Below, one piece after another: positions 827 to 36,584 of a stretch of 38,284 nt of DNA (its first letter is position 1; every line of letters starts with the position of its first letter). Below the pieces are notes generated by a model. That model was not told the DNA's origin, made no database searches, and saw nothing but the letters and a program-made list of their open reading frames with translations. Made by a program: the position numbers and the translations under genes. The DNA lies in IMG/VR virus record IMGVR_UViG_2778261592_000009, positions 1 through 38,284 of that record; one strand, 5' to 3'. The DNA comes from a virus. Its lineage: Duplodnaviria; Heunggongvirae; Uroviricota; Caudoviricetes.

Positions 827-1204
827 TTACGCAGGTAGGTAAAGATATGATTGTGGTGGCTTAATATTACTACCTAGAGCAGAGATAGGAATTGGTTCTT
901 TATATCTTTCCACTTCACCAATTTTTATTGCGTAGGCCTTTTCTCTACCTGAATAATATGAGTCATAAAATTGCTTAGAAATACCTGCGTGTTTTTCCGT
1001 CTTTTTCCAAAGAGATTCCGGTTCGTCACTTAGTATTGATTCAATACGGAATTGGCCAACAACTTTACCTAATGGCATCGTGGCATAAATAACAACGGTG
1101 CTAATTTGCGGATTTTTGAATATACCTTTACGAAACTCGAACCGCTTTGTTCCGTTCAATATTTTTTCTGCAAACTCAGGCTTAATGGATAATAAAACTT
1201 TCAT
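827..1204 (-). CDS. ASCH-domain (PUA-like fold) protein, 125 aa
   Basis: ATG at 1204; pattern LLSIKPEFAEKILNGTKRFEFR ... AYAIKIGEV typical of ASCH proteins (by eye); AT-rich; overlaps upstream gene by 23 nt. Confidence 0.65.
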   Translation of the reverse strand: MKVLLSIKPEFAEKILNGTKRFEFRKGIFKNPQISTVVIYATMPLGKVVGQFRIESILSDEPESLWKKTEKHAGISKQFYDSYYSGREKAYAIKIGEVERYKEPIPISALGSNIKPPQSYLYLPA

Positions 1205-2255
1205 TTATCTTGCCTAACTCGATGATCTTTAAGAACTGCTCATTTGTGAGTTTAAAGTGACTCCATCGGAATGCACGCGAACCATTTAGCCCCACATGAT
1301 CTATTAAAATAGCACGATTGGGTCTCTTTGGCAAAGACAGATTGTATGTGAATCTTATAATGAAAGGGTATCGACGTTCTTTATAGATTTTTCTGAGTTC
1401 ATCTTCAGAAAATACGCTAAAACGAATACAATAGTCTACAAAACTATCTTCGCTTAAAAATTCAGAAATATTTTTTACGCTCTCAACTACACATAATGTA
1501 CTGGCTACAGAACGATAGCGAGCTGGCCCTTTTTTGTCTCCGGTTCTATAGATGACAATGATATCTCCTCTTTTCATTCCCATCACAGAACGCATTCCAC
1601 ATATGTAAATTTTATGAATGCTGTTAGCATGGGATATATCTTTGACAATATCTGGTGATTCATTTACAAGTTTTGAATCAGGGAATAGTCTAGTGTGATA
1701 TTCGGGATAAATCGCCAGTAAATATTTGTTGGCCCTTGATGTCATTATTCGAGGGTAATCTAATAAAATATCACCATAAGGCTCATGCAAAGACCTCGCA
1801 TATACAAACTCTTTCCCGTTATGTGTTTCTTTTTCACCATGAATGTAAAATCCGTACGTTTGGAAAAGTTTTATTAGATGGACGTGTTTGTCGAAAACAG
1901 TAACATAAATATCATCAGATTTTGATGAAAATGCATGGTCAAACGCTTTTTTTAGAAATCGTTGTCCGCGAAGGGTGCCTTTAGATTCAAATTTGAATGT
2001 TCCTATCTTTAGATGACGTCCTGGTGGGAGCGCTGGATTAATGTCATTTGCATCATCATTTTCTTTTAGATACATAAAACCTTCGATTTTATGCTTGTCA
2101 TCATAGAGCACATAAGCTGATTCTCCTTCTCTGGCTTTTTTTTCTAACCAAAGAGGAAACTCTTTATAATCTTTTTTTAAAGAGTCAAAAAATGGGTCAT
2201 TGTGATCAAAATCAGAGAATTTCTCATATTTTAAAGTATCCATTAAGTTCTCCAT
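1182..2255 (-). CDS. two-domain protein: N-terminal GNAT-like acetyltransferase region plus unassigned C-terminal domain (357 aa)
   Basis: ORF 1182..2255; alternative ATG at 2243 has GGAG 9 nt upstream; LRGQRFLKKAF and LFQTYGFYIHGE resemble GNAT motifs A/B (by eye only); AT-rich; 68 nt downstream of cI stop on same strand. Confidence 0.55.
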   Translation of the reverse strand: MENLMDTLKYEKFSDFDHNDPFFDSLKKDYKEFPLWLEKKAREGESAYVLYDDKHKIEGFMYLKENDDANDINPALPPGRHLKIGTFKFESKGTLRGQRFLKKAFDHAFSSKSDDIYVTVFDKHVHLIKLFQTYGFYIHGEKETHNGKEFVYARSLHEPYGDILLDYPRIMTSRANKYLLAIYPEYHTRLFPDSKLVNESPDIVKDISHANSIHKIYICGMRSVMGMKRGDIIVIYRTGDKKGPARYRSVASTLCVVESVKNISEFLSEDSFVDYCIRFSVFSEDELRKIYKERRYPFIIRFTYNLSLPKRPNRAILIDHVGLNGSRAFRWSHFKLTNEQFLKIIELGKINESFIIH

Positions 2256-2323: not shown

Positions 2324-3016
2324 CTATCCATGCTTCCTATACGTCTGCGGCATGCTCCCAATAACTTTCCCGAAGATAAATACCCGGTTCATCTCATCTT
2401 TCTCGATCGGGTCCCACGGTGAGTAGCTTTTGTTATCAGAGATAACCAGCAGCTTATCCTTCATCATTTGCAAGCGCTTTACATGGGCTGTGTCGTCGTA
2501 CAGAAACGCATAGATACCATCACCGTCGAAAGATTTAACCGTGATATCAACGAATAGAAGATCACCAGGTTCAATCGTTCCTGACATGCTGTCACCGCGT
2601 ACGTTAATGATGCGGATATTTTCTGCCTTCCTACCATCGAACATGTGACGAGCATCGTCAAACGAGTACTCAACCGAGCGTAGAACTTCTACAAACTCAC
2701 GGTTGATGACTCCCGGCCCGGCACTCACTTCTATATCAAGAACGTCAATCTTGAAGTATTTGGGATGGTTGGCAGTAGGCTTCCCTAATTGTTGACCGTC
2801 ATTTCTCATCGGGCCTATGCCTGATGAGAGCCACTCTGTTCGAACACCCAATGCATTAGCTATTTCAACAATTTTTGTTGAGCCGCGCGCGTTGCCGCTT
2901 GTCAGTCTCCAGATTGTGGGTTGAGCTACGCCAGACGCCTTTGCAAGAGCGCCTTGAGACATTCCAGATTGTTCCATCGCTAGGTTTAAGCGATCAGCAA
3001 GAGTTTCTTTTTTCAT
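2324..3016 (-). CDS. cI: CI-like prophage repressor (N-terminal HTH, C-terminal LexA/S24-type autopeptidase domain)
   Basis: HTH SQGALAKASGVAQPTIWRL; S24-like GDSMSGTIEPGDLLFVD and downstream VKRL; ATG at 3016 lies 8 nt from TATAAAT on the minus strand (leaderless, as lambda cI from PRM); maximal ORF to 3052 starts at TTG. Confidence 0.85.
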   Translation of the reverse strand: MKKETLADRLNLAMEQSGMSQGALAKASGVAQPTIWRLTSGNARGSTKIVEIANALGVRTEWLSSGIGPMRNDGQQLGKPTANHPKYFKIDVLDIEVSAGPGVINREFVEVLRSVEYSFDDARHMFDGRKAENIRIINVRGDSMSGTIEPGDLLFVDITVKSFDGDGIYAFLYDDTAHVKRLQMMKDKLLVISDNKSYSPWDPIEKDEMNRVFIFGKVIGSMPQTYRKHG

Positions 3017-3126
3017 AAGTTTTAATTTATACGCTTGCGTATTGATGGTCAAAACACGTTTTGCTATTGTTATAATTAATACGTATTGCTATTATTTATT
3101 CATTGTAATACCAATAGGAATTAATA
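3017..3126. promoter_or_regulatory. OR-like operator region with divergent PRM (leftward) and PR (rightward) promoters
   Basis: 110-bp intergenic region between divergent repressor and cro; TTGCTATTG and TATTGCTATTA motifs shared with 630..676; TATAAT at 3071..3076 (rightward); TATAAAT at 3031..3025 with TTGACC at 3052..3047 (leftward). Confidence 0.55.
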
Positions 3127-3354
3127 ATGACAAATCAAACCATTCAACTCGCAATCAGTATTACAGGTAGTCAAAAACGACTGGCAGATCTATGCGGTGT
3201 AGCCCAGCCCACTGTTTGGCGTTGGCTACACGGTGGCGGAATTGATGCCCGCTATGTAATGAAAATTGTCTCAGCCACTGGTGGAAAGATTAAACCAGCA
3301 GATATTCGTCCCGACCTCGCACCATTGTTTAACGCGAGTAATTCTGCCGCCTAA
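3127..3354 (+). CDS. cro: Cro-like HTH repressor (75 aa)
   Basis: Divergent from repressor gene; AGGA before ATG; HTH segment QKRLADLCGVAQPTVWRWL. Confidence 0.75.
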   Translation: MTNQTIQLAISITGSQKRLADLCGVAQPTVWRWLHGGGIDARYVMKIVSATGGKIKPADIRPDLAPLFNASNSAA

Positions 3355-3378
3355 TCTGCGGCGTTAACTGATAAGGCA

Positions 3379-3924
3379 ATGACTATGCAACCACTTACAT
3401 ACCAACAGACTAGCGGATTTAGCCCGACTGCGGTGATAAATCGTTCTCAAACAAAACAAGCTCCAGGCCACGAAAAAATCCGTGATGCCGTCCGCGCCTG
3501 GTCGGCTGCAGATAATCAGGATGTTGTTGCCGCACTCATTGTGAATGAGTATCGGGAGCAGGGCGGCGGCACCATCGATTTCCCTGATGATGTCAGCCGT
3601 GCACGCCAGAAGCTGTTCCGCTTCCTCGATAACAAATTCGATTCTGAAAAATACCGAAATAACGTGCGTGAACTGACCCCGGCAATTCTGGCGGTACTAC
3701 CGCTGGAATATCGCGGTTACCTGGTTGAGCAGGATAGCTTCATGACTCGGTTGGCTGAAATGGAAAAGGAACTCAGTGAGGCAAAACAGGCTGTCATTCT
3801 CAACGCACCACGCCACCAGAAACTGAAGGAAATGAGTGAAGGTATTGTGTCGATGTTTCGTGTGGACCCGGATCTGGCTGGTCCATTAATGGCGATGGTG
3901 ACCACCATGCTGGGGACAATATGA
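3379..3924 (+). CDS. CII-like / YdaT-family early regulatory protein (181 aa), tentative
   Basis: Sits between cro and the replication gene; AAGG RBS; family assignment positional. Confidence 0.5.
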   Translation: MTMQPLTYQQTSGFSPTAVINRSQTKQAPGHEKIRDAVRAWSAADNQDVVAALIVNEYREQGGGTIDFPDDVSRARQKLFRFLDNKFDSEKYRNNVRELTPAILAVLPLEYRGYLVEQDSFMTRLAEMEKELSEAKQAVILNAPRHQKLKEMSEGIVSMFRVDPDLAGPLMAMVTTMLGTI

Positions 3925-4010: not shown

Positions 4011-4940
4011 ATGGCAAACACTGCTGAGATATTCAATTTTCCAGTGCCGGATGCGGCACAAAAGGAGCCGCGCGTGGCAGATCTCGATGATGGTTATACG
4101 CGCATTGCAAATGAGTTGCTGGAAGCTGTGATGCTGGCCGGATTAACACAGCACCAGCTTCTGGTCTTCCTGGCTGTCATGCGCAAAACATATGGCTTTA
4201 ATAAAAGACTGGATTGGGTGAGCAACGAGCAACTTTCCGAATTGACCGGGATATTGCCGCACAAGTGTTCTGCTGCAAAAAGCGTTCTGGTAAAGCGTGG
4301 GATTCTTATTCAGAGCGGGCGAAATATCGGCATTAATAATGTGGTCAGTGAATGGTCAACATTACCCGAATCAGGTAAGAAAAATAAAGTTTACCTGAAA
4401 GAGGTAAATTTACCTGAATCAGGTAAGAAAAGTTTACCCAAATCAGGTAAAGGCGTTTACCCGAATCAGGTAAACACAAAAGACAAACTAACAAAAGACA
4501 ATATAAAACCTTTTTCGTCCGAGAATTCTGGCGAATCCTCTGACCAGCCAGAAAACGACCTTCCTGTGGTGAAACCGGATGCTGCAATTCAGAGTGGCAG
4601 CAAGTGGGGGACAGCAGAAGACCTGACCGCCGCAGAGTGGATGTTTGACATGGTGAAGACCATCGCGCCATCAGCCAGAAAACCGAATTTTGCAGGGTGG
4701 GCTAACGATATCCGCCTGATGCGTGAACGTGACGGACGTAACCACCGCGACATGTGCGTGCTGTTCCGCTGGGCATGCCAGGACAACTTCTGGTCCGGTA
4801 ACGTGCTAAGTCCGGCCAAACTCCGCGACAAGTGGACCCAACTCGAAATCAACCGTAACAAGCAACAGGCTGGCGTGACAGCCGGAAAATCAAAACTCGA
4901 CCTGACAAACACTGACTGGATTTACGGGGTGGATTTATGA
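4011..4940 (+). CDS. O: replication initiator, lambda O-like
   Basis: ADLDDGYTRIANELLEAV ... LAVMRKTYGFNKRLDWVSNEQLSELTG parallels lambda O (recalled); GGGAGGA RBS before ATG 4011 (maximal ORF starts 3921); carries the origin iterons. Confidence 0.85.
   Translation: MANTAEIFNFPVPDAAQKEPRVADLDDGYTRIANELLEAVMLAGLTQHQLLVFLAVMRKTYGFNKRLDWVSNEQLSELTGILPHKCSAAKSVLVKRGILIQSGRNIGINNVVSEWSTLPESGKKNKVYLKEVNLPESGKKSLPKSGKGVYPNQVNTKDKLTKDNIKPFSSENSGESSDQPENDLPVVKPDAAIQSGSKWGTAEDLTAAEWMFDMVKTIAPSARKPNFAGWANDIRLMRERDGRNHRDMCVLFRWACQDNFWSGNVLSPAKLRDKWTQLEINRNKQQAGVTAGKSKLDLTNTDWIYGVDL
4362..4510 (+). repeat. ori-lambda-like origin: five 17-bp iterons TTACCYRAATCAGGTAA plus AT-rich tract
   Basis: Iterons at 4362..4378, 4391..4407 (degenerate), 4410..4426, 4434..4450, 4457..4473, each an inverted repeat TTACC...GGTAA; A-rich tract 4474..4510; inside O as in lambda. 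Confidence 0.7.
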
Positions 4941-5954: not shown

Positions 5955-6449
5955 ATGAGAAAATTTATTTTAGCCTTTGTTATAAGTGCCTCGTTTACAG
6001 CAAATGCTGGTGTAGAGAAGTTAGGGCCGTGGATAACAAAGTCTGAGATAAATAAAATGACTGACCAGACTGACTTTGTGGCTCTTAATTTATCACCAGA
6101 TTCATATAACAAAGCAGGTACTGATCGTGCAACTTCACTGGTGTTGCGTTGTAGTGATAACAAAACAGATGCCTATTTATCATTCAATGATTATATGGGT
6201 TCGGACAACCCAAGAATTACAGTGCGGTTAGATGGCGGAAAGCCGGTCAAGAGTGTTTGGGGAGGTGGGGAAGGCGGTGATTCTGCATTTGCTCCACAAC
6301 CAATACAATTTATAAAGACCTTGGCTAAGCATAAAAAAGCTATTTTTGGGTTTGAACCTTATGGATCAACTATGCAAGTAGTTGAGTTTGACTTGTCTGA
6401 GATTGATAAGGTTGTGGAAAAAATTTCACAGTCTTGCAATTGGAAATGA
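5955..6449 (+). CDS. hypothetical secreted protein (moron), 164 aa with signal peptide
   Basis: AAGGAGA RBS; N-terminus MRKFILAFVISASFTANA; own terminator downstream; AT-rich relative to neighbours. Confidence 0.6.
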   Translation: MRKFILAFVISASFTANAGVEKLGPWITKSEINKMTDQTDFVALNLSPDSYNKAGTDRATSLVLRCSDNKTDAYLSFNDYMGSDNPRITVRLDGGKPVKSVWGGGEGGDSAFAPQPIQFIKTLAKHKKAIFGFEPYGSTMQVVEFDLSEIDKVVEKISQSCNWK

Positions 6450-24062: not shown

Positions 24063-24250
24063 CGTTTAACAGCCTGCCGGACGGGCTGTCCTACCTTCTC
24101 AATCCGGTTGACGCCGGGTTAATTCCTTATACAGCACTTAAAGATGGCTCTGTCGATTTGTACGACATTGCTCTCTTGAATGACCATCTGGCGGTAAAAG
24201 CGGATAACCAGCGGCGCATTGAGAAATGGAGAGAGGATAATGAACGCTGA
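24011..24250 (+). other. programmed -1 frameshift site (T TTT TTG, 24011..24017) and -1 frame extension of the tail chaperone
   Basis: In zero frame codons AAT TTT TTG; the -1 frame is open from 24011 to the TGA at 24248..24250 (about 79 codons), overlapping the tape measure start. Confidence 0.5.
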
Positions 24251-26228
24251 AACTATTAAAGATTTCCTCGTCTCGCTTGGCTTCAGTGTGGATGATGCAG
24301 GAGCGAAAAAGTTCGGTTCTGTCCTCTCCGGTACAACTGCAAATGTCATCAAAATGGGGCTGGCTGTTGAAGGATCTGCGCTGTCCGTGGTGGCCTTCAC
24401 GGCTAAGATCGCCTCCGGTCTGGATAATCTCTACTGGGCGTCACAGCGCACCGGCGCGACGGTTCAGGGGATTCAGTCTATTGGCTATGCGGTTTCGCAG
24501 GTTGGCGGCAGCGTGGACGCTGCGCGCGGGTCACTGGAGAGCCTTGCCCGTTTTATCCGTAATAACCCCGGGGCTGAGGGATTTCTGAATCGTCTGGGGG
24601 TACAGACACGGGATGCCAGCGGTAACATGCGTGACATGGCCGCTATTTTTACAGGTGTAGGACAGAAGCTCAGCGGCATGCCGTATTACCGGGCTAACCA
24701 GTATGCGCAGATGCTGGGCATTGACGAAAATACCCTTATGGCGATGCGCCGGGGTGTGGGTGGTTTCTCCGGGCAGTACAGCGCAATGGCGAAAGCTATC
24801 GGCTTCAATGCTGACGAGGCGGCCAGAAGCTCCAACAAATTTATGACCTCCCTGCGTGAGTTTGGCGCGATGGCAGGCATGGCCCGTGACAAAATCGGCT
24901 CTAATCTTGCGGGTGGGCTTGCGGGTTCGCTGGACACTCTGCGCCGCCATATCCTGGACAACTTCCCGCGTATCGAGCAGACCCTGACGAAAGCCATAAA
25001 AGGCATTCTGGCGCTCGGGGATATTATCGTGCGGCTGTTCTTCAGACTGATTGAAGGAACATCAGGCCTCATCACCTGGTGGCAATCGCTGGATAAGCAA
25101 ACGCGGGAGCTCATCTCGCTGTTTGGCGCGCTGACGATTGCGCTGCGCATTCTGAACAGTACGTTCTGGATGTCGCCGATTGGCCTCATTACCGCGCTGG
25201 CGGCGGGGATTGCCCTTCTGTGGGAGGACTATCAGACCTGGAAGGAAGGCGGCGACAGCCTGATTGACTGGGGCAAGTGGAAGCCGGAGGTCGATGCCGC
25301 GCTGAAGATGGTTCGTGACCTGAAAGGGTCTGTTAATGAACTGGCGAAAGCGCTGGCGAAACTGCTCAATATTGACCCCAAATCATGGTCCCTGAAGTGG
25401 GATTTCAGCAACTTCATCGACCAGATGGGCGAATTCAGCAAAATGCTGAACATGATCGCCGACCTGCTCAACGCTATCAAAGATGGCTGCTGGGCTGATG
25501 CCGTCAGCATCGGCAAACAGATACTTAATCAGGGCAGCGAAAATCCGTCAGCGATGCCGATGGTTACAGACAGCGCTAACAGTACTGCCGACTGGATTAA
25601 AGAGCACTGGGGATTCGATCCTCGCAGCGTGGGCCGGACGGTACGCGGCTGGTTTGGTGATGATGAGCCGGAACAATATGCACAGGCTACAAAACGAGGA
25701 GAACGGAATAACAATCCGGGAAACCTTAATTTTGCTGGTCAGGCAGGGGCTTCTCTTGAACGCCCGGGCGGGCGATTTGCCAGATTTGAAACTGCTTTTG
25801 ATGGATTACGGGCTCTTGCTCGTCAGTTAATGTTGTACGCCGGACGTGGAATAAACAGCGTGGAGAAAATTATCTCTACCTGGGCACCTGCGTCTGATAA
25901 TAACAACACAACTGCGTATATCAGGGCTGTATCGCAACGACTGGGAGTGGATCCCCGGGCTGCCCTGAATATGAGCGATCCGCAAACCATGTCAGCATTG
26001 ATGAGCAGCATTATCCAGCATGAAAATGGAAGAAATATCTATTCTCGAGAGCTGATTAATAAGGCTGCCGTGGCGGGAATTAGTGGCAAAGTGACAGAGG
26101 TTAACCAGCAAAATACTTACCACATTTACGGTGGCGGAGATCCGCACGCTGTCGGTAATGAGGTTGCACGTCGGCAACAGTCTGCAAATGCTCAGGTCAT
26201 GCGAAGTAATCAGGTGAGGGTGGGTTAG
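24240..26228 (+). CDS. tail tape measure protein
   Basis: 662 aa from ATG 24240 (GAGAGGA RBS; maximal ORF starts at TTG 24219); Ala/Gly-rich helical N-terminal half; follows chaperone frameshift pair. Confidence 0.8.
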   Translation: MNAETIKDFLVSLGFSVDDAGAKKFGSVLSGTTANVIKMGLAVEGSALSVVAFTAKIASGLDNLYWASQRTGATVQGIQSIGYAVSQVGGSVDAARGSLESLARFIRNNPGAEGFLNRLGVQTRDASGNMRDMAAIFTGVGQKLSGMPYYRANQYAQMLGIDENTLMAMRRGVGGFSGQYSAMAKAIGFNADEAARSSNKFMTSLREFGAMAGMARDKIGSNLAGGLAGSLDTLRRHILDNFPRIEQTLTKAIKGILALGDIIVRLFFRLIEGTSGLITWWQSLDKQTRELISLFGALTIALRILNSTFWMSPIGLITALAAGIALLWEDYQTWKEGGDSLIDWGKWKPEVDAALKMVRDLKGSVNELAKALAKLLNIDPKSWSLKWDFSNFIDQMGEFSKMLNMIADLLNAIKDGCWADAVSIGKQILNQGSENPSAMPMVTDSANSTADWIKEHWGFDPRSVGRTVRGWFGDDEPEQYAQATKRGERNNNPGNLNFAGQAGASLERPGGRFARFETAFDGLRALARQLMLYAGRGINSVEKIISTWAPASDNNNTTAYIRAVSQRLGVDPRAALNMSDPQTMSALMSSIIQHENGRNIYSRELINKAAVAGISGKVTEVNQQNTYHIYGGGDPHAVGNEVARRQQSANAQVMRSNQVRVG

Positions 26229-26815
26229 TGGATATTCTCTCTACACTTTTTCATCAGCAGAGCAGAAAAATAGGAATGATTGTTCCCAGTGTTGTTATTT
26301 CAGAGAAGCATACAGATATGCTTGAAATAACAGAGCATCCGGTAGAGGTCGGGGCTGCTGTCGCTGATCATGCCTATAAAAAACCGTCAGAAGTGGTGAT
26401 GGAGGTTGGTTTCGCCGGTGGCGGCGCATTGCTGGATTTTGCCAGTAACCTGACGGCTACCAGCCTGCTCGGCCTGAGTCCTCAGCAGACGTATCAGGAG
26501 CTACTGGATCTGCAGGAAAGCCGTATCCCCTTCGATGTGGTAACCGGTAAACGGCTGTACAGCAACATGTTGATCCGGGCGCTGGAAGTGACGACGGACA
26601 AGACAACCGAAAACGTCCTGTCCGCCGTCCTCACCCTGAGGGAGGTCCTTATCTCCCGGACACAGCAGATCACCGTTGCTGATAAAACCAACATGAAGGA
26701 AGGGGCCAGCACGTCGGCGGTACAGAACAGCGGCAACAAAACCACAAAGCCTCCAGATACTTCACTGCTGAAAAGCATCACGGGTAACGTGGCGTCATTA
26801 CTGGGAGGCGGATAA
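26228..26815 (+). CDS. tail / baseplate-associated protein (195 aa)
   Basis: GTG start with GAGGGTGGG RBS overlapping tape measure stop. Confidence 0.45.
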   Translation: MDILSTLFHQQSRKIGMIVPSVVISEKHTDMLEITEHPVEVGAAVADHAYKKPSEVVMEVGFAGGGALLDFASNLTATSLLGLSPQQTYQELLDLQESRIPFDVVTGKRLYSNMLIRALEVTTDKTTENVLSAVLTLREVLISRTQQITVADKTNMKEGASTSAVQNSGNKTTKPPDTSLLKSITGNVASLLGGG

Positions 26816-27117
26816 TGACAATTCAGGAAATTCCGCTGACAGCGGACAATCAGCAGTTCAGCATCGTCCTGGGGGGGGTCACCTGGCGGATTAGCATCAT
26901 ATGGCGCGATCTTTACTGGATTATGGACCTGCAGAACGACAGAGGGGAGCCGGTAATCTCCGGTATTCCTCTCGTCACTGGTGCTGACTTGCTGGCGCAG
27001 TACGCCTGTATGGGGCTTGGTTTTAAGCTGGTGGTGGTCTGCGATGACAACACACAGGATTATCCCACGAAAACTGATCTGGGCGGCCGCAGTCATTTAC
27101 TGGTATCAACGGAGTAA
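26815..27117 (+). CDS. tail / baseplate-associated protein (100 aa)
   Basis: ATG overlapping upstream stop (TAATG). Confidence 0.45.
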   Translation: MTIQEIPLTADNQQFSIVLGGVTWRISIIWRDLYWIMDLQNDRGEPVISGIPLVTGADLLAQYACMGLGFKLVVVCDDNTQDYPTKTDLGGRSHLLVSTE

Positions 27118-27119
27118 GC

Positions 27120-28181
27120 ATGTCACAGAACTGGATGAGACATTTCGAGCTGCAGCTTGTGGACGGGAACGGTCAGGGAATTGAGCTAAGTGATTTCAAA
27201 GTCACCTTTACGATCGACTGGTTCAACATCAGCAGCGCGTCCCGGGTAGGGACTATCAAAATTTATAACCTCTCGGCAGATACTGTGAACCGAATCACCG
27301 GGCAGGAATTTTCGAAAGTGCGTCTGATTGCCGGTTACGACGGTATCGCGCCGGAGGTGTCAGCAAGCGACGTAGGGACCGTGCGGGAAGTTGACGCGGC
27401 GGACGTGGGCCAGAGAGATGGCCGCAACTACGGACTGATTTTCAGCGGTGAAATTCGCTACTCGGTCACAGGAAAAGACAGTCCGGTTGATACCTACGTC
27501 CTGATTCAGGCAGCAGATACTGATCTGGCTTTTGCCACCAGTATAACCTCACAGACGCTGGCTGCCGGTTACACGGTCGCTGATGTGAACCGTGCGCTGA
27601 TGAAAGACTTCGAAGCCAAAGGCGCGACTGAAGGCCTGACGCCTGAAATGCCTGCTACTGTATTCCCCCGGGGGCGGGTACTCTTTGGCATGACGCGGCA
27701 TCTTATGGATAACGTAGCCGGTCAATGTGGCGCAACATGGCAATTCGTGGACGGTCAACGCCAGATGGTGGCGAATAATGAATATATTCACAAAGCGATT
27801 GTGCTCAACAGCGCTACCGGGCTTATTGGCATGCCGCAGCAGACCATCGGCAACGGCGTAAATGTCCGCGCGCTTATTAATCCGAACATCCGGGTTAACG
27901 GGCTCATTCAACTGGATCAGGCTTCAGTGTATCGTACCGCGTTGTCGAATAACGATATCGCGATGGCCGGTGGGCAGATCACCGACCAGAACACGGACGG
28001 AAATATTACGCTAAGCGGCACCACATCGCAGCCTGCCAGCATCGCAACGGATGGCGTTTATATTGTGCGCGGGATTATGTACACTGGCGACACAAGGGGC
28101 CAGGCGTGGTACATGGATATGATGTGCGAAGCGCGTGGCGCGGCGGATCTGTATACGCAATCGGCTTTGCAAAGGGGATGA
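27120..28181 (+). CDS. baseplate hub protein candidate (P2 gpD / late-control-D-like)
   Basis: 353 aa ORF after tape measure and before spike/gpW/gpJ-like genes; assigned by synteny. Confidence 0.55.
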   Translation: MSQNWMRHFELQLVDGNGQGIELSDFKVTFTIDWFNISSASRVGTIKIYNLSADTVNRITGQEFSKVRLIAGYDGIAPEVSASDVGTVREVDAADVGQRDGRNYGLIFSGEIRYSVTGKDSPVDTYVLIQAADTDLAFATSITSQTLAAGYTVADVNRALMKDFEAKGATEGLTPEMPATVFPRGRVLFGMTRHLMDNVAGQCGATWQFVDGQRQMVANNEYIHKAIVLNSATGLIGMPQQTIGNGVNVRALINPNIRVNGLIQLDQASVYRTALSNNDIAMAGGQITDQNTDGNITLSGTTSQPASIATDGVYIVRGIMYTGDTRGQAWYMDMMCEARGAADLYTQSALQRG

Positions 28182-28184
28182 GCA

Positions 28185-28526
28185 ATGAGGGGTATTATTT
28201 TTCTGTTCGCTGTCTTTTCTGCGTGCAGCGCGTGGGCGGATGGCTTCACGGTTAAATGCGGTGGCTACACTATGGTTGCAAACCAGGGCGAGTTATCGAC
28301 TATCAACGGTGAAAGAGTTACCTCTCAAAAAATCACCGAACTGGGTACCAATGGTTTGAAAGTAGACATGGGGCTTATGCCTGCCAAAGACGGTAACAAC
28401 TACGGCTTTGAATACATTCGTCGCCCTAGTACCGAAACGCGATTCCTGAATGTCCAACTGCTGCAGAACAGCATGGACGCGCCGAAAATCATCGGATCTT
28501 TCCCGTGTAAAAAGGTTGATGGTTGA
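28185..28526 (+). CDS. small secreted protein (113 aa) with signal peptide
   Basis: AGGGGA RBS, ATG 3 nt after hub gene stop; N-terminus MRGIIFLFAVFSACSAWA then mature domain with two Cys. Confidence 0.55.
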   Translation: MRGIIFLFAVFSACSAWADGFTVKCGGYTMVANQGELSTINGERVTSQKITELGTNGLKVDMGLMPAKDGNNYGFEYIRRPSTETRFLNVQLLQNSMDAPKIIGSFPCKKVDG

Positions 28527-28587
28527 AGTCCCATCCTTTTTGCAAGGATGATTTTGTGCGAAACGGCTCAACAGCACGAGCTTCGGA

Positions 28588-28617
28588 TTGACTAAACTGT
28601 ATACGCGAACATAAAAT
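28588..28617 (+). promoter_or_regulatory. candidate sigma70 promoter of the inserted cassette
   Basis: TTGACT (28588..28593), 18-nt spacer, TAAAAT (28612..28617), about 30 nt upstream of GTG 28647. Confidence 0.35.
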
Positions 28618-28646
28618 TCAACCAAAAGATAAGTAGCGAGCGTACT

Positions 28647-29417
28647 GTGGCAAGACCAAAACTGAAAGCGGAAGAGCGTTTTGACCAGTTGGTTAAGATA
28701 ATCAATAGTGGTCAACCTCTTGATATTTGGACCTTTCGAGAGGTGGTCTCGGAGTATGGCTCTAAGCGTACTCCGCCTGCTGACACGCTTGTAGCTTTGG
28801 CTCATATTGCTAAAGGTGATGTGAGTGTCGGGATTGAAATGCTTGAAGCTATCCTCCCACATGCTGATGTTAACTTTGCGCGGATTTTTTGTAAGCTGCT
28901 TGAGCGTTTTTCTCTACTCGAAAAATCGGACTACTACATCTATTCTTTAGCTGATAAGTATCCAACCAAGTGGTTTACTTATAGGGCTGGTGGCGTTGCG
29001 TATTTGGTAGGGAAACTATCAAAATGCGTAGAATATTTTGGACGTCATTGCAAAATGTTATCCCAAGAAGAACATAGGGATGACGCAGAAGCCTTCTTGC
29101 AGGAGGTAATTCACGATATGGATGAAGCATACAAAAAGTCAGGATGCTCTTCAGAACAATACATGCAAGTTGCTCTTGCTGTTCATAGAGTCATGGCTGA
29201 ATTCCCTCCAACTGAATATCGTGCTGACATCAACGGTGCATCTGGTGGGACTTATCTGGTTGAGGTAGTTAATGCATCTCCTGAACAGGTGGTTGCAATG
29301 AATATGCGACTTGCAGATGAAATTTGTTCAATCGATTTACTTGATGATTGCAATCTTATTGCACGTTTTTCCGTTGAAAGAAATAGCTTGAAAGGGTGTA
29401 AATATGCCTATAACTAG
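28647..29417 (+). CDS. hypothetical protein (256 aa), cargo gene inside tail module
   Basis: GTG start; lower GC than flanking baseplate genes; no recognisable motif; 3' end overlaps next gene by 14 nt. Confidence 0.55.
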   Translation: MARPKLKAEERFDQLVKIINSGQPLDIWTFREVVSEYGSKRTPPADTLVALAHIAKGDVSVGIEMLEAILPHADVNFARIFCKLLERFSLLEKSDYYIYSLADKYPTKWFTYRAGGVAYLVGKLSKCVEYFGRHCKMLSQEEHRDDAEAFLQEVIHDMDEAYKKSGCSSEQYMQVALAVHRVMAEFPPTEYRADINGASGGTYLVEVVNASPEQVVAMNMRLADEICSIDLLDDCNLIARFSVERNSLKGCKYAYN

Positions 29418-29799
29418 CTCTGAGTTTTTATCTTCAGCGGAGCGTTGCTTTGCGGAGGATTCTGAAGTTGGTTATCGTAATACTATTTCGCGGGCATATT
29501 ATGCGCTTTACCATGAAATAAAAGAGAATCTGACCAGTCTTCCTGCTTATACGAAGGATCATCATTCCAGTCTTATCTCTTATCTTAAAAATAAGAGTGA
29601 AAACAAACTGGAGCCATATGATCCATTAAGCCTAAAATCCATGGCTTACAAACTTGAGCAACAGAGACTGGCTCGAAATGAAGCAGATTATGACCTCACT
29701 AGCTGTGCAATAGATAAAGCAATGGCACAGCAATCTCTCTTAGAGGTTAAGACTATTTTTTCTCAGTGGGAAAAAATGAAGACTGATGAAGCTGTTTAA
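29404..29799 (+). CDS. HEPN-like small protein (131 aa), tentative
   Basis: ATG 29404; helix-like segment NTISRAYYALYHEIKENL (R-x6-H) and later LARNEADYDL resemble HEPN signatures (by eye); followed by strong terminator. Confidence 0.5.
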   Translation: MPITSSEFLSSAERCFAEDSEVGYRNTISRAYYALYHEIKENLTSLPAYTKDHHSSLISYLKNKSENKLEPYDPLSLKSMAYKLEQQRLARNEADYDLTSCAIDKAMAQQSLLEVKTIFSQWEKMKTDEAV

Positions 29800-29816
29800 A
29801 CTCATTCAGTGAATTA

Positions 29817-29846
29817 ACAAAACCCGCCATTCGGCGGGTTTTTTGC
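29817..29846 (+). terminator. rho-independent terminator closing the cargo cassette
   Basis: CCCGCC(29823..29828)-ATTC-GGCGGG(29833..29838) followed by TTTTTT; preceded by AAAA, so possibly bidirectional. Confidence 0.7.
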
Positions 29847-29863
29847 TTTCTGGAGCCTACCAA

Positions 29864-30616
29864 ATGGCAGTATCTGACCAGACCCGCAGCGGCGACCTTG
29901 CCGAAACATTCAAATCTGAACGGGAAACAACAAAGAATCAGATCCGTGTCGCCTTGCCTGGCATTATTCAGTCATTCGATCCTGATGCGGTGACGGCGGT
30001 TGTGCAGCCTGCTATCCGTTCGGTTGAAAAGGATAATGACGGCAACCGCATTACCAAAAATTACCCATTGCTGGTGGATGTTCCAGTGGTATTCCCACGT
30101 GGCGGAGGATGTACGCTAACGTTTCCGATTAAAGCCGGGGATGAGTGTCTTGTCGTTTTTGCCGATCGTTGTATTGATTTCTGGTGGCAGAGCGGCGGAA
30201 TACAGGAACCGGTCGATGACAGAATGCATGATTTATCGGATGCGTTTTGTATTGTAGGCCCCCAGTCGCAGGCGAGGAAGATTAGCGGTATTAATACCAG
30301 TGCCACACAGTTGCGTAGTGACGATGGCAGCACCTATTTTGAGCTTAATCCTGATACCAGGAAAATTAAAATTGTCGCTCCGGGTGGTCTTGATGTGGTT
30401 GCCCCTCTGGCTGATTTTTCTGAGAAAGTAACCATTCATGGCCTGTTAACCTGGATGGGGGGCATGGTGGGGTCTGTTGTTTCTGGTGTGGCTTCAAAAA
30501 TCACTGGTGTTGTTGAGTTTTTGGGTAGCGTGAAGGCTAACGGCAAGCCAATCGATAATACGCACACTCATGGTGGTGTTCAGCGCGGTGGAAGCAGTAC
30601 CGACGGGGTAAACTGA
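29864..30616 (+). CDS. baseplate central spike protein candidate (gpV / Mu gp45-like)
   Basis: ATG 29864 with GGAG RBS (maximal ORF from 29843); 250 aa; precedes gpW-like and gpJ-like genes. Confidence 0.55.
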   Translation: MAVSDQTRSGDLAETFKSERETTKNQIRVALPGIIQSFDPDAVTAVVQPAIRSVEKDNDGNRITKNYPLLVDVPVVFPRGGGCTLTFPIKAGDECLVVFADRCIDFWWQSGGIQEPVDDRMHDLSDAFCIVGPQSQARKISGINTSATQLRSDDGSTYFELNPDTRKIKIVAPGGLDVVAPLADFSEKVTIHGLLTWMGGMVGSVVSGVASKITGVVEFLGSVKANGKPIDNTHTHGGVQRGGSSTDGVN

Positions 30617-34533: not shown

Positions 34534-35073
34534 TTATGCAGCCCTCACAATGTAGTTAAATGCAATGTTTCGCGGGCTACCATCACCGGCGCCGGAACTG
34601 ACATGATTTGTTCTATCCATTCGTTTACTGTCATTTGTTGTTCCACTCCCATCCTTCCACGAATACAATAACCCGCCATCGCCAATGCTCAACTGCACCG
34701 CAAATACGGATGATGTACCTAATTCACCAACATCTCTAGCCATGAGTGGGTTCCCTGTCCATCCATGCATTTCATGGTTATGTTCAAGGATAGATGCTGC
34801 CTGACTTGAAAGCAGCAGTCTCGCGGAATCAACACCTCGCCCATCATCCCACCCGCGAATAAACTCACCGCGCAAATCCGGTAATTTTAACTTTGGGTAA
34901 GCCTTTGCCAGTTTTGGGTACTCTTCGGCAGAAAAAGGTGCACCGTTGCATTTCAGCCAGCCTGTTGGTGGTGTGGCTGAAGGCCACGGAACAGGCACAC
35001 CAACGGGTAACGCTGAGCCTTCTCCCAAACCAACGTTTATGAAAATGCAGAAATAACGAGCAAATGGCATCAT
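34534..35073 (-). CDS. alternative tail fibre C-terminal (receptor-binding) segment, Sv'-like
   Basis: Encodes LGEGSALPVGVPVPWPSATPPTGWLKCNGAPFSAEEYPKLAKAYP, the conserved junction of Mu/P1/e14-type invertible fibres; crossover site lies in codons 13-20 in the same codon phase as in the expressed fibre gene. Confidence 0.65.
   Translation of the reverse strand: MMPFARYFCIFINVGLGEGSALPVGVPVPWPSATPPTGWLKCNGAPFSAEEYPKLAKAYPKLKLPDLRGEFIRGWDDGRGVDSARLLLSSQAASILEHNHEMHGWTGNPLMARDVGELGTSSVFAVQLSIGDGGLLYSWKDGSGTTNDSKRMDRTNHVSSGAGDGSPRNIAFNYIVRAA
35019..35045. repeat. right inversion crossover site (inverted copy)
   Basis: CTTCTCCCAAACCAACGTTTATGAAAA; reverse complement shares TTGGTTTGGGAGAAG with site at 33170..33196. 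Confidence 0.6.
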
Positions 35074-35099
35074 TCCTGCTTTTGTCAGGGGGATCTACC

Positions 35100-35654
35100 A
35101 TGCTTATTGGCTATGTACGCGTATCAACAAATGACCAGAACACAGATCTACAACGTAATGCGCTGAACTGTGCAGGATGCGAGCTGATTTTTGAAGACAA
35201 GATAAGCGGTACAAAGTCCGACAGACCAGGACTGAAAAAGCTGCTCAGGACATTATCGGCAGGTGACACGCTGGTAGTCTGGAAACTGGACCGACTGGGG
35301 CGCAGTATGCGGCATCTTGTCGTGCTGGTGGAGGAGTTGCGCGAACGAGGCATCAACTTTCGTAGTCTGACGGATTCAATTGATACCAGTACCCCAATGG
35401 GGCGCTTTTTCTTTCATGTGATGGGTGCCCTGGCTGAAATGGAGCGTGAACTGATTGTTGAACGAACAAAAGCTGGACTGGAAGCAGCTCGCGCACAAGG
35501 ACGAATTGGTGGACGTCGCCCCAAACTTACACCAGAACAATGGGAGCAGGCCGGACGATTAATTGCATCAGGCGTTCCTCGCCAGAAGGTGGCGATCATC
35601 TATGATGTTGGTATATCGACACTGTATAAGAAGTTTCCGGTCGGAGATAAATGA
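35100..35654 (+). CDS. site-specific DNA invertase, Hin/Gin/Cin/Pin serine recombinase family
   Basis: MLIGYVRVSTNDQNTDLQRNAL ... WKLDRLGRSMRHL ... GRIGGRRPKLT closely follows E. coli Pin / Mu Gin as recalled; ATG 35100 (maximal ORF from 35064). Confidence 0.9.
   Translation: MLIGYVRVSTNDQNTDLQRNALNCAGCELIFEDKISGTKSDRPGLKKLLRTLSAGDTLVVWKLDRLGRSMRHLVVLVEELRERGINFRSLTDSIDTSTPMGRFFFHVMGALAEMERELIVERTKAGLEAARAQGRIGGRRPKLTPEQWEQAGRLIASGVPRQKVAIIYDVGISTLYKKFPVGDK

Positions 35655-35714: not shown

Positions 35715-36584
<870 letters not shown>

Follow-up and report, generated by a model that had tools for sequence, protein, structure and literature searches.

A two-gene HEPN cassette exchanged as cargo in the hub-spike slot of Brunovirus-like Escherichia coli prophages: a candidate anti-phage module

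We describe a two-gene cassette in a 38,284-nucleotide viral sequence (the window; IMG/VR record IMGVR_UViG_2778261592_000009) that is accessory to its phage, encodes a small HEPN-fold protein of the AF0298-like clade next to a near-obligate partner, occurs only in phages and prophages, and is under strong purifying selection in both genes. On balance we favor the view that it is a moron, a piece of mobile prophage cargo, whose two proteins form a conflict module in which a HEPN effector is held by its partner. We infer the defensive function from context only, and the RNase activity, the inhibitory role of the partner, the trigger and an anti-phage phenotype are put forward here as components of a model. 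Coordinates are collected in Table 1.

Table 1. Features of the cassette and its surroundings (window positions).
Feature	Position	Strand	Basis or remark
Second variable slot of the hotspot, outside the cassette: 113-aa gene	28185..28526	+	phrog_3443, E 7e-47
Replaceable segment of the hub-spike hotspot	28529..29819		Homology breaks, low GC; the two-gene cassette is the allele here
Candidate sigma-70 promoter, TTGACT-18 nt-TAAAAT	28588..28617	+	10/12 match, best in 6 kb
Partner gene, 256 aa, GTG start	28647..29417	+	ORF; phrog_17809
Overlap of the two reading frames, 14 nt	29404..29417	+	ORFs
HEPN-fold gene, 131 aa, AF0298/UPF0332-like (PF05168 clade)	29404..29799	+	ORF; phrog_5176
Intrinsic terminator, hairpin and T-run	29819..29842	+	22 nt before the spike start codon (29864); conserved right flank

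The carrier is a Brunovirus/SEN34-like E. coli prophage in which the cassette lies between a small secreted-protein gene, itself following the baseplate hub gene, and the spike gene. The original prediction of an insert between hub and spike was right about the location, but the 113-aa gene separates the hub from the cassette. In relatives this gene is 55–100% identical or is swapped for a 154–176 aa protein with an apparent signal peptide (signal peptides of the 113-aa protein and its substitutes were judged by eye only). The two overlapping cassette genes were called in the same way by PGAP in an identical genome, NZ_AP027899.1 (WP_000113596.1 and WP_001123212.1). Homology to loci with other cargo stops at 28515–28528 on the left and restarts at 29819–29821 on the right, with a break common to all cargo alleles at 29819/29820. 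As predicted, the insert is lower in GC, at 0.41 compared to 0.53 and 0.49 in the 5-kb flanks; this value is the minimum among 383 windows of that size from 13.6 to 34 kb, and GC3 of the cassette genes is 0.32–0.35 compared to 0.46–0.61 in the adjoining genes. Flanking direct repeats, which would indicate transposition, were looked for around the segment and none were found. An Rfam scan of 28100..30000 gave nothing above a gathering score, and its sub-threshold matches came mostly from the terminator hairpin.

The cassette had been expected to run from its own promoter to its own terminator. The hairpin is indeed strong (dG −20.8 kcal/mol, z = −3.9), and its stem (CCCGCC/GGCGGG) is invariant, with a variable loop, in 60 of 79 hotspot loci, but it is also found at loci with other cargo; because the homology break shared by all alleles falls at 29819/29820, the terminator is part of the conserved right flank rather than of the insert. 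Of the features of a promoter-to-terminator moron, the cassette has the foreign composition and the presence/absence pattern; the terminator is the hotspot's, and the promoter is a candidate. The candidate promoter is the best-matching site in its neighborhood, but promoter-like sites in the region (8) are in no excess over chance expectation (7.6 ± 2.6). The promoter block (∼35 nt) is identical in an 85%-identical variant (L002), although the sequence around it differs, but it was not recognizable in more distant relatives and no promoter-like match was found in the L003-type allele. The sequence evidence for a cassette-owned promoter is weak, and outside close relatives no such promoter can be demonstrated; the cassette genes could simply be co-transcribed with the late tail operon.

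Comparison of related prophages showed that the insert is accessory and far from ubiquitous. The hub-spike locus is present in 272 of 5,426 complete E. coli genomes (about 5%), and only 10 of the 272 have the cassette; elsewhere its place is taken by unrelated cargo or left empty. Slot contents among 75 IMG/VR loci comprise at least 15 different gene combinations, and two of these loci lack any cargo ORF as long as 50 aa. Diverged forms of the pair account for about 40% of alleles at this hotspot, with at least five divergent alleles of the pair at the locus; other occupants include a YafO toxin pair, a weakly PycTM-like membrane protein, other membrane proteins, and lipoproteins. The pair is also spread over several different hotspots: the hub-spike slot houses it in 51 of 80 loci (hub identity 47–99%), and it also occurs where the lysis and terminase genes meet in three different Serratia phages, in tail regions of siphoviruses, and in Yersinia pekkanenii. 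The location between hub and spike genes would suit proteins of baseplate assembly or structure, such as a TPR chaperone with a helical-bundle component, and TPR proteins are frequent chaperones. However, the cassette is absent from most phages with a 96–99% identical hub protein and is 99–100% identical across prophages whose spikes are only about 65% identical; moreover, the same pair occurs at non-tail sites, its GC content is foreign, and the homology to tail or assembly proteins that would have spoken against cargo was not found in Pfam or PHROGs. A baseplate role is therefore highly improbable, and we consider it effectively refuted by the presence/absence data.

The two genes belong together. 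A partner-family gene lies immediately upstream of the HEPN gene in 75 of 77 assessable phage loci, a count composed of 68 loci scored by script with overlapping frames (overlap 1–35 nt), six in which a partner-family ORF ends at the HEPN start (added after allowing for over-long ORF calls), and one identified by hhalign. In the window, the overlap probably reflects translational coupling. The two proteins co-diverge (r = 0.95), with HEPN better conserved than its partner in 76 of 78 comparisons, and both genes are under strong purifying selection (dN/dS relative to L002 of 0.053/1.03 for HEPN and 0.063/0.777 for the partner). In complete E. coli genomes, the 10 copies of the cassette and the 33 L003-type copies are without exception full length. 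The set of close relatives contains an orphan partner and no orphan HEPN, and Yersinia phage YP3 (from waste water, on Y. ruckeri) has a distant partner-family gene without any HEPN.

Such an organization, with two genes in overlapping frames, the presumed neutralizer first, and the pair always intact, would also be expected of a selfish toxin-antitoxin (addiction) pair that stabilizes the prophage or hitch-hikes between phage hotspots with no role in defense. In other prophages the slot is taken by a classical toxin family, YafO, and HEPN-MNT toxin-antitoxin pairs are formed by this very HEPN clade (PMC3710099). Nevertheless, we think simple addiction unlikely: the pair was seen in phage or prophage contexts only, no plasmid copies were found, and chromosomes only very rarely have it outside prophages (a scan of 185,579 species-representative genomes with a narrow alignment gave one match, itself amid phage-like genes). 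Faster divergence of the partner, together with at least five divergent alleles at one locus, looks more like an arms race. Addiction and defense overlap in any case, because many toxin-antitoxin pairs of this kind prove to be anti-phage.

The second protein had been predicted to be HEPN-like, and this was borne out: its family fits the AF0298-like variant, which uses an alternative His. Its 131 residues form a four-helix up-down bundle with HEPN topology, and the family profile is significantly similar to the AF0298/UPF0332-type HEPN structures 9xbd/9xbc (E 2.3e-12) and 2hsb (E 3.8e-7). The window protein itself has no PF05168 match (gathering threshold, 22 bits), but PF05168 matches at E ≤ 0.1 were obtained in 9 of 24 family representatives (best, 3.5e-7), and one homologue has a precomputed PF05168 assignment. 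PADLOC-DB v2 gave only a marginal HEPN_IX match (E 0.0089 over 63 residues), and relatives behaved alike. Of the two segments first taken as HEPN signatures, the R-x6-H helix (R30 to H37) is in helix 2, off the HEPN catalytic position, and is not the catalytic motif; RNEADY does sit at the catalytic position, at the end of helix 3, but lacks the His. No His lies within 4–6 residues of R91 (RNEADYDL), as the canonical Rx4-6H motif would require; the invariant residues there are D95 and Y96. Both R91 and H54 are invariant in the 24 representatives (≤80% identity), with H54, which falls in the helix 2–3 insert, aligned with the His of 2hsb and 9xbd. The polar core as a whole is constant in these representatives down to 25% identity, a pattern that argues for an active site over a decayed domain.

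AF0298-like HEPN-T proteins keep the motif Arg and have, in the helix 2–3 insert, an alternative His under strong conservation (PMC3710099). The 131-aa protein has both, and its residue pattern agrees with the site of this kind that has been proposed for AF0298-like HEPNs and AbiV (PMC3710099). Because the canonical His is absent, catalysis would rest on this alternative site. With the AF0298/UPF0332-type proteins (2hsb, 9xbd/9xbc, PF05168) it shares a signature consisting of an SRAYYA helix, the helix 2–3 His, and R-x-x-[AS]-D-Y where Rx4-6H would be expected. These reference proteins come from archaea or otherwise lack a known context and are functionally uncharacterized, whereas the present pair is phage-borne. 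The clade usually has a minimal nucleotidyltransferase as its partner or as a fused domain, whereas the partner here is TPR-like. A literature search returned no paper for PDB entries 9xbd/9xbc and no described activity for the AF0298/UPF0332 clade.

The 256-aa partner consists of a TPR-like helical array (about residues 8–185) and a small C-terminal alpha/beta domain (about 186–245), and a structure search with the full model matched TPR arrays only. There was no match in Pfam, NCBIfam, or PADLOC, and a BFVD search returned two same-sized uncultured-phage proteins that were uninformative. Neither conserved catalytic residues in the partner family nor a DNA-binding domain (by Pfam) could be recognized. 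We considered whether the C-terminal domain is a cryptic nucleotidyltransferase and rejected this: its GASGG and DLLDD segments are not conserved in the family, its predicted strand-strand-helix-strand topology does not fit, Pfam gave no nucleotidyltransferase match, and no Gly-Ser or acidic dyad is conserved among 50 sequences. A Cys/His metal site (H134, C167, C227, and C235) was likewise dropped, being conserved in 20 closer sequences but not among 50. In other alleles YafO is preceded by a 190-aa protein, which proved unrelated to the partner (hhalign probability, 0.3%).

In the mechanism we propose, the standalone HEPN protein would be the effector, most likely an RNase, with an active site built from R91 and the alternative H54 plus the invariant E21, R25, R30, D95, and Y96. 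The partner, made just upstream and translationally coupled, would be non-enzymatic, combining a protein-binding TPR-like array with the small alpha/beta domain, and would keep HEPN inactive in the lysogen. An infecting phage would disturb the complex, either through a phage protein that binds the repeat array or through loss of the partner, and the freed HEPN would halt translation in the cell before the invader completes its cycle (abortive infection).

The association with a tail-gene slot across hubs only 47% identical could also mean a role in the phage cycle. The pair might thus be expressed late and serve the phage's own lytic cycle or counter-defense without protecting the lysogen, the HEPN-fold protein binding or cleaving host RNA or a host defense component and the TPR-like protein acting as adaptor or chaperone. 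The cassette does lie in a late operon and ahead of a terminator through which late transcripts have to pass in any case; evidence for its promoter is weak, and for other alleles lacking, its HEPN lacks the canonical catalytic His, its tie to the tail-gene slot spans very divergent phages, and YP3 retains a partner-family gene without HEPN. However, because it is present or absent among near-identical phages, the pair must be dispensable for virion production; the other occupants of the slot (YafO toxin pair, membrane proteins, lipoproteins) are typical lysogen-benefit cargo, the invariant HEPN polar core argues for catalysis, and the pair is also found at the lysis-terminase moron site of lambdoid phages. 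We therefore give a purely lytic role little credence and retain the conflict module as the preferred explanation.

Among described systems, the type VII HEPN-MNT pairs (Shewanella SO_3166/SO_3165, 5yep; Aphanizomenon, 7ae2; Legionella, PMC11586414) likewise have a small standalone HEPN in a two-gene operon, and a conserved Tyr beside the motif is common to them and to the cassette HEPN; in those systems a Tyr is the AMPylation site (PMC11586414). However, their HEPN has the canonical Rx4-6H His that ours lacks, and the cassette partner is not a minimal nucleotidyltransferase (pol-beta fold, GS...DxD). Because it has neither that fold nor conserved G-S/DxD-type residues, neutralization by AMPylation is not expected.

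The Tha/Ith system of S. aureus prophages consists of a HEPN RNase and its cognate protein inhibitor, and it responds to a tail (structural) protein of the infecting phage, while the prophage must avoid autoimmunity (PMC11087260). The cassette resembles it in joining a prophage-encoded HEPN, here the presumed effector, to a second protein, here the proposed inhibitor. There is no sequence relationship, though: Tha is about 300 aa with a canonical R265/H270 compared to 131 aa for the cassette HEPN, and Tha/Ith sits in the lysogeny operon with a small, antisense-encoded Ith, whereas the cassette is in the tail operon. RnlA-RnlB and LsoA-LsoB differ as well, with multi-domain toxins, a canonical motif, the toxin gene first, and a small antitoxin. 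Typical type II antitoxins usually have a DNA-binding domain, whereas the partner here has none that is recognizable and is twice the size of the presumed toxin.

HEPN operons with TPR or Sel1 repeat proteins are already a noted theme (Anantharaman et al. 2013), but AbiV of Lactococcus, AbiU2 with a Sel1-repeat protein, and LA2681 with TPR belong to HEPN families other than that of the cassette, and that account does not include the phrog_17809 partner family and its C-terminal alpha/beta domain. In the parts of the DefensePredictor supplements available to us (PMC13092281) there was no accession or sequence motif of the pair or of the L003-type allele; DS-28 from the same source, with a 163-aa HEPN and a 252-aa protein of similar sizes, is unrelated in sequence and opposite in gene order. 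A literature search for WP_000113596, the one accession searched, returned no paper, and no experimental record of the cassette was found. As to the slot, hotspots of P2-like phages and P4-like satellites are fixed positions at which unrelated defense or toxin cassettes interchange (Rousset et al. 2022, PMC9122126). The hub-spike slot resembles these in that cassettes replace one another between conserved flanks, but it belongs to another lineage (Brunovirus/SEN34-like), is at another position, and has a conserved terminator as its right bound.

A bolder and more tentative version of the conflict module, which we hold to be possible rather than probable, is that the partner directly recognizes, as a receptor, some conserved structural protein of rival phages, whose binding would free an RNA-cleaving AF0298-type HEPN with the alternative Arg/His site. 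If so, this would give the large AF0298/UPF0332 HEPN clade its first function other than in HEPN-MNT pairs, the divergent hub-spike alleles (five or more) would represent a specificity repertoire from inter-phage warfare, and orphan partner genes such as that of YP3 could be neutralizing decoys. If the cassette is an anti-phage module of any kind, its TPR-like array with a small alpha/beta domain would be a new partner architecture among HEPN-based immune systems, a clade with solved structures would gain a function, and the hub-spike slot of Brunovirus-like prophages would be a new compact, sharply bounded hotspot that could be mined for more systems. Should it prove not to be defensive, it would still be a clear case of modular cargo exchange within a tail operon. 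The carrier prophage also encodes PD-T4-3 and the PADLOC candidate system PDC-M11, and the EPEC reference strain E2348/69 is among the carriers of the cassette.

The window is a Brunovirus/SEN34-like prophage identical in DNA to a stretch of the E. coli 2018-10-2CC chromosome (NZ_AP027899.1). Because NCBI PGAP calls both genes of the cassette between its baseplate hub and spike genes, and dN/dS against an 85%-identical DNA variant is low (∼0.08 for the 256-aa partner, ∼0.05 for the 131-aa HEPN protein), the two overlapping genes (by 14 nt) are real coding genes, placed as originally predicted. The lower GC described for the insert was also found: 28529..29819 has a GC content of 0.41, the minimum among equal-sized windows of the structural region, and GC3 is 0.32–0.35 in the cassette genes vs 0.46–0.61 in their neighbors.

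Features of the prophage around and beyond the cassette
Feature	Position	Strand	Match or remark
357-aa and 125-aa ASCH-domain genes	827..2255	-	PADLOC candidate PDC-M11A/B, E 2e-133 and 7e-52
cI-like S24 repressor	2324..3052	-	
164-aa ORF, early region	5955..6449	+	Pfam VasI, E 5e-6
Tape measure / lytic transglycosylase	24219..26228		
Baseplate protein	26228..26815		
Baseplate plug	26815..27117		
Baseplate hub	27120..28181		phrog_196, E 3e-89
113-aa protein	28185..28526	+	phrog_3443; apparent signal peptide (by eye)
Promoter-like site	28588..28617		within variable segment
256-aa partner	28647..29417		cassette gene 1
131-aa HEPN	29404..29799		cassette gene 2
Hairpin	29819..29842		right border of slot
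Spike	29864..30616		PF18352 and Apex motif
Additional baseplate genes	from 30616		
Resolvase-family recombinase	35064..35654	+	Pfam Resolvase and HTH_7
274-aa GIY-YIG protein	35715..36539	-	PADLOC PD-T4-3, E 2.7e-140; Pfam LEM-3-like GIY-YIG

The cassette is an accessory phage-borne operon. Compared with relatives that carry different cargo, DNA similarity ends at 28515-28528 and returns at 29819-29821; no repeats flank the variable segment, and no Rfam family scored above threshold for it. Using 75 prophage loci from IMG/VR with hub proteins 96–99% identical to that of the window, we classed what lies between hub and spike. The insert was not ubiquitous: the window's 256 + 131 aa cassette was present in 4 loci, and elsewhere the slot held pairs of 243 + 140–142 aa (20 loci), 257 + 131 aa (3), 266 + 123 aa (3) or 207 + 125 aa (1, without family match), a 79-aa DUF4282 membrane protein (15), a 192-aa protein with a YafO toxin (8), a 100-aa protein with a DUF2335 protein (6), a 176–184 aa membrane protein with weak PycTM similarity (E 9e-4; 5), a 241-aa lipoprotein (4), other single genes of 170, 140 or 52 aa (5), or, besides the 113-aa gene, no ORF of at least 50 aa (2). 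Among 5,426 complete E. coli genomes, 272 have the locus and 10 of these the cassette, 3 at 84% identity and 7 at ≥99%; the latter include the EPEC reference strain E2348/69, which offers a clear experimental path.

Two other occupants of the slot merit description. The usual antitoxin of YafO is the small YafN; the YafO-family toxin (138 aa) of L004, L038 and related slots is instead preceded by a 190–192 aa protein with a weak EAD5 match (E 0.002), which is unrelated to the partner family and was rejected as a member. In locus L054 the single 170-aa ORF contains, by eye, a canonical RNxxxH HEPN-like motif (IRNNLFHGGKY), and Pfam and PADLOC searches gave no match for it. The 113-aa gene beside the slot is itself variable: relatives have it at 55–100% identity or carry in its place an unrelated protein of 154–176 aa, also with an apparent signal peptide. 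It makes up a further cargo slot, which may serve superinfection exclusion.

The promoter and terminator originally ascribed to the cassette fared differently. The hairpin, a strong intrinsic terminator 22 nt ahead of the spike start codon, occupies the same position in L003 (another allele of the pair) and L004 and keeps an invariant stem with a variable loop in 60 of 79 IMG/VR hotspot loci irrespective of cargo; it is thus a slot fixture not brought by the cassette. Late tail transcription has to pass this hairpin before the spike gene, implying either antitermination or leaky termination. The promoter-like site does lie inside the insert and is unchanged in the 85%-identical variant, but it is statistically unremarkable and has no recognizable counterpart in distant relatives. 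A comparable hairpin, AAACCCGCC...GCGGGTTT, lies downstream of the pair in Serratia lambdoid phages (L099, 7152..7172).

The 131-aa protein was rightly called HEPN-like: a family profile of 24 representatives matched 9xbd (E 2.3e-12), 9xbc (1.7e-11) and 2hsb (3.8e-7), PDB entries of AF0298/UPF0332-type HEPN proteins, and 9 of the 24 match PF05168. It carries a conserved polar core; E21, R25, S29, R30, Y32, Y33, P47, H54, R91, D95 and Y96 are invariant. The Rx6H (R30..H37) first likened to an RNase signature is the conserved SRAYYA..H of helix 2. RNEADY does occupy the motif position, but it is not canonical and lacks the catalytic His of Rx4-6H; the family is of the AF0298-like variant. AF0298-like HEPN-T proteins and AbiV retain the motif Arg without that His, and a conserved His in the helix 2-3 insert is their proposed alternative active site (Anantharaman et al. 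2013, PMC3710099); the 131-aa protein fits exactly, with R91 as the Arg and H54 as the alternative His.

The partner has no significant match in Pfam, NCBIfam or PADLOC, its sole family match being phrog_17809. When 1.84 billion representatives were searched exhaustively with a profile, 62 relatives came back, mostly of about 250–260 aa. Among 50 of them conservation is highest at Ala, Gly, Leu and one Asn position, none catalytic-looking, and the stretch conserved most strongly is 209-240, within the C-terminal unit. From this pattern we read the partner as a putative non-enzymatic binding protein.

Pairing of the two genes is near-obligate. Of 80 loci retrieved from IMG/VR by the HEPN family, 77 were assessable; in 68 a script scored a partner-family gene directly upstream in an overlapping frame, 6 more showed this arrangement after allowing for over-extended ORF starts, and in one the upstream gene encodes a distant partner-family member of 259 aa (hhalign probability 89.9%), giving 75 of 77. 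The 243 + 142 aa pair is homologous to the cassette (hhalign probability 85% for partners, 97% for HEPNs). Pairwise identities of partner and HEPN are correlated (r = 0.95, 13 pairs), the partner evolves faster (HEPN more conserved in 76 of 78 comparisons), and the two are probably translationally coupled. In complete E. coli genomes all copies are full-length (10/10 of the cassette, 33/33 of the L003-type allele). In the slot of Yersinia phage YP3 (PV092592) a distant partner-family gene (3097..3897, 266 aa, hhalign probability 90.6%) stands alone, no HEPN gene following it; this orphan may be vestigial or may act as an independent neutralizer.

All contexts found for the pair were phage or prophage, and no plasmid copies were found. 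The hub-spike slot of myoviruses, with hubs 47–99% identical to the window's, accounts for 51 of 80 loci and extends to Klebsiella, Rosenbergiella and additional hosts; other sites are the lysis–terminase junction of Serratia phages with three different backbones, siphovirus tail regions, including that of Klebsiella phage ST405-OXA48phi1.3, and a site amid phage-like genes in Yersinia pekkanenii. Because the cassette is 99–100% identical in prophages whose adjacent spike (65%) and 113-aa gene (60–70%) have diverged, it moves as a module. In ST405-OXA48phi1.3 (MK416008) the 131-aa HEPN ORF is intact (4252..4647) and overlaps the end of the partner gene; the GenBank record splits it into two small hypothetical ORFs (4304..4435 and 4432..4647).

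By analogy with HEPN-MNT, RnlAB/LsoAB, Tha/Ith and AbiV, the HEPN protein would be a latent RNase that the partner holds off, with release tied to infection, most plausibly via the partner's predicted TPR-like repeat array, so that an infected lysogen would arrest growth. The nearest working precedent is Tha/Ith, in which a prophage-encoded HEPN RNase is paired with its own inhibitor protein and is activated by tail proteins from an incoming phage (PMC11087260). The pair could also have a phage-cycle or counter-defense role, as its long association with tail-gene clusters would suggest; the missing canonical His likewise counts as a weakness of the RNase-effector reading. Conflict modules of two genes built on a HEPN protein are a known kind, as are cargo hotspots in prophages (Rousset 2022, PMC9122126), and other HEPN families have been described next to genes for TPR or Sel1 repeat proteins (PMC3710099). 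Pfam, NCBIfam, PADLOC v2 and the searchable DefensePredictor tables contained neither the partner family nor its combination with an AF0298-type HEPN nor the hub-spike hotspot, and we found no publication on them.

The prophage already carries defense cargo, since it encodes PD-T4-3 and candidate PDC-M11 genes. The former lies at the tail-fiber end, adjoining the recombinase gene, and the latter adjoin the repressor gene in a low-GC island (0.34–0.38). The VasI match in the early region is just above the gathering score; VasI is a type VI secretion accessory family, unexpected inside a prophage.
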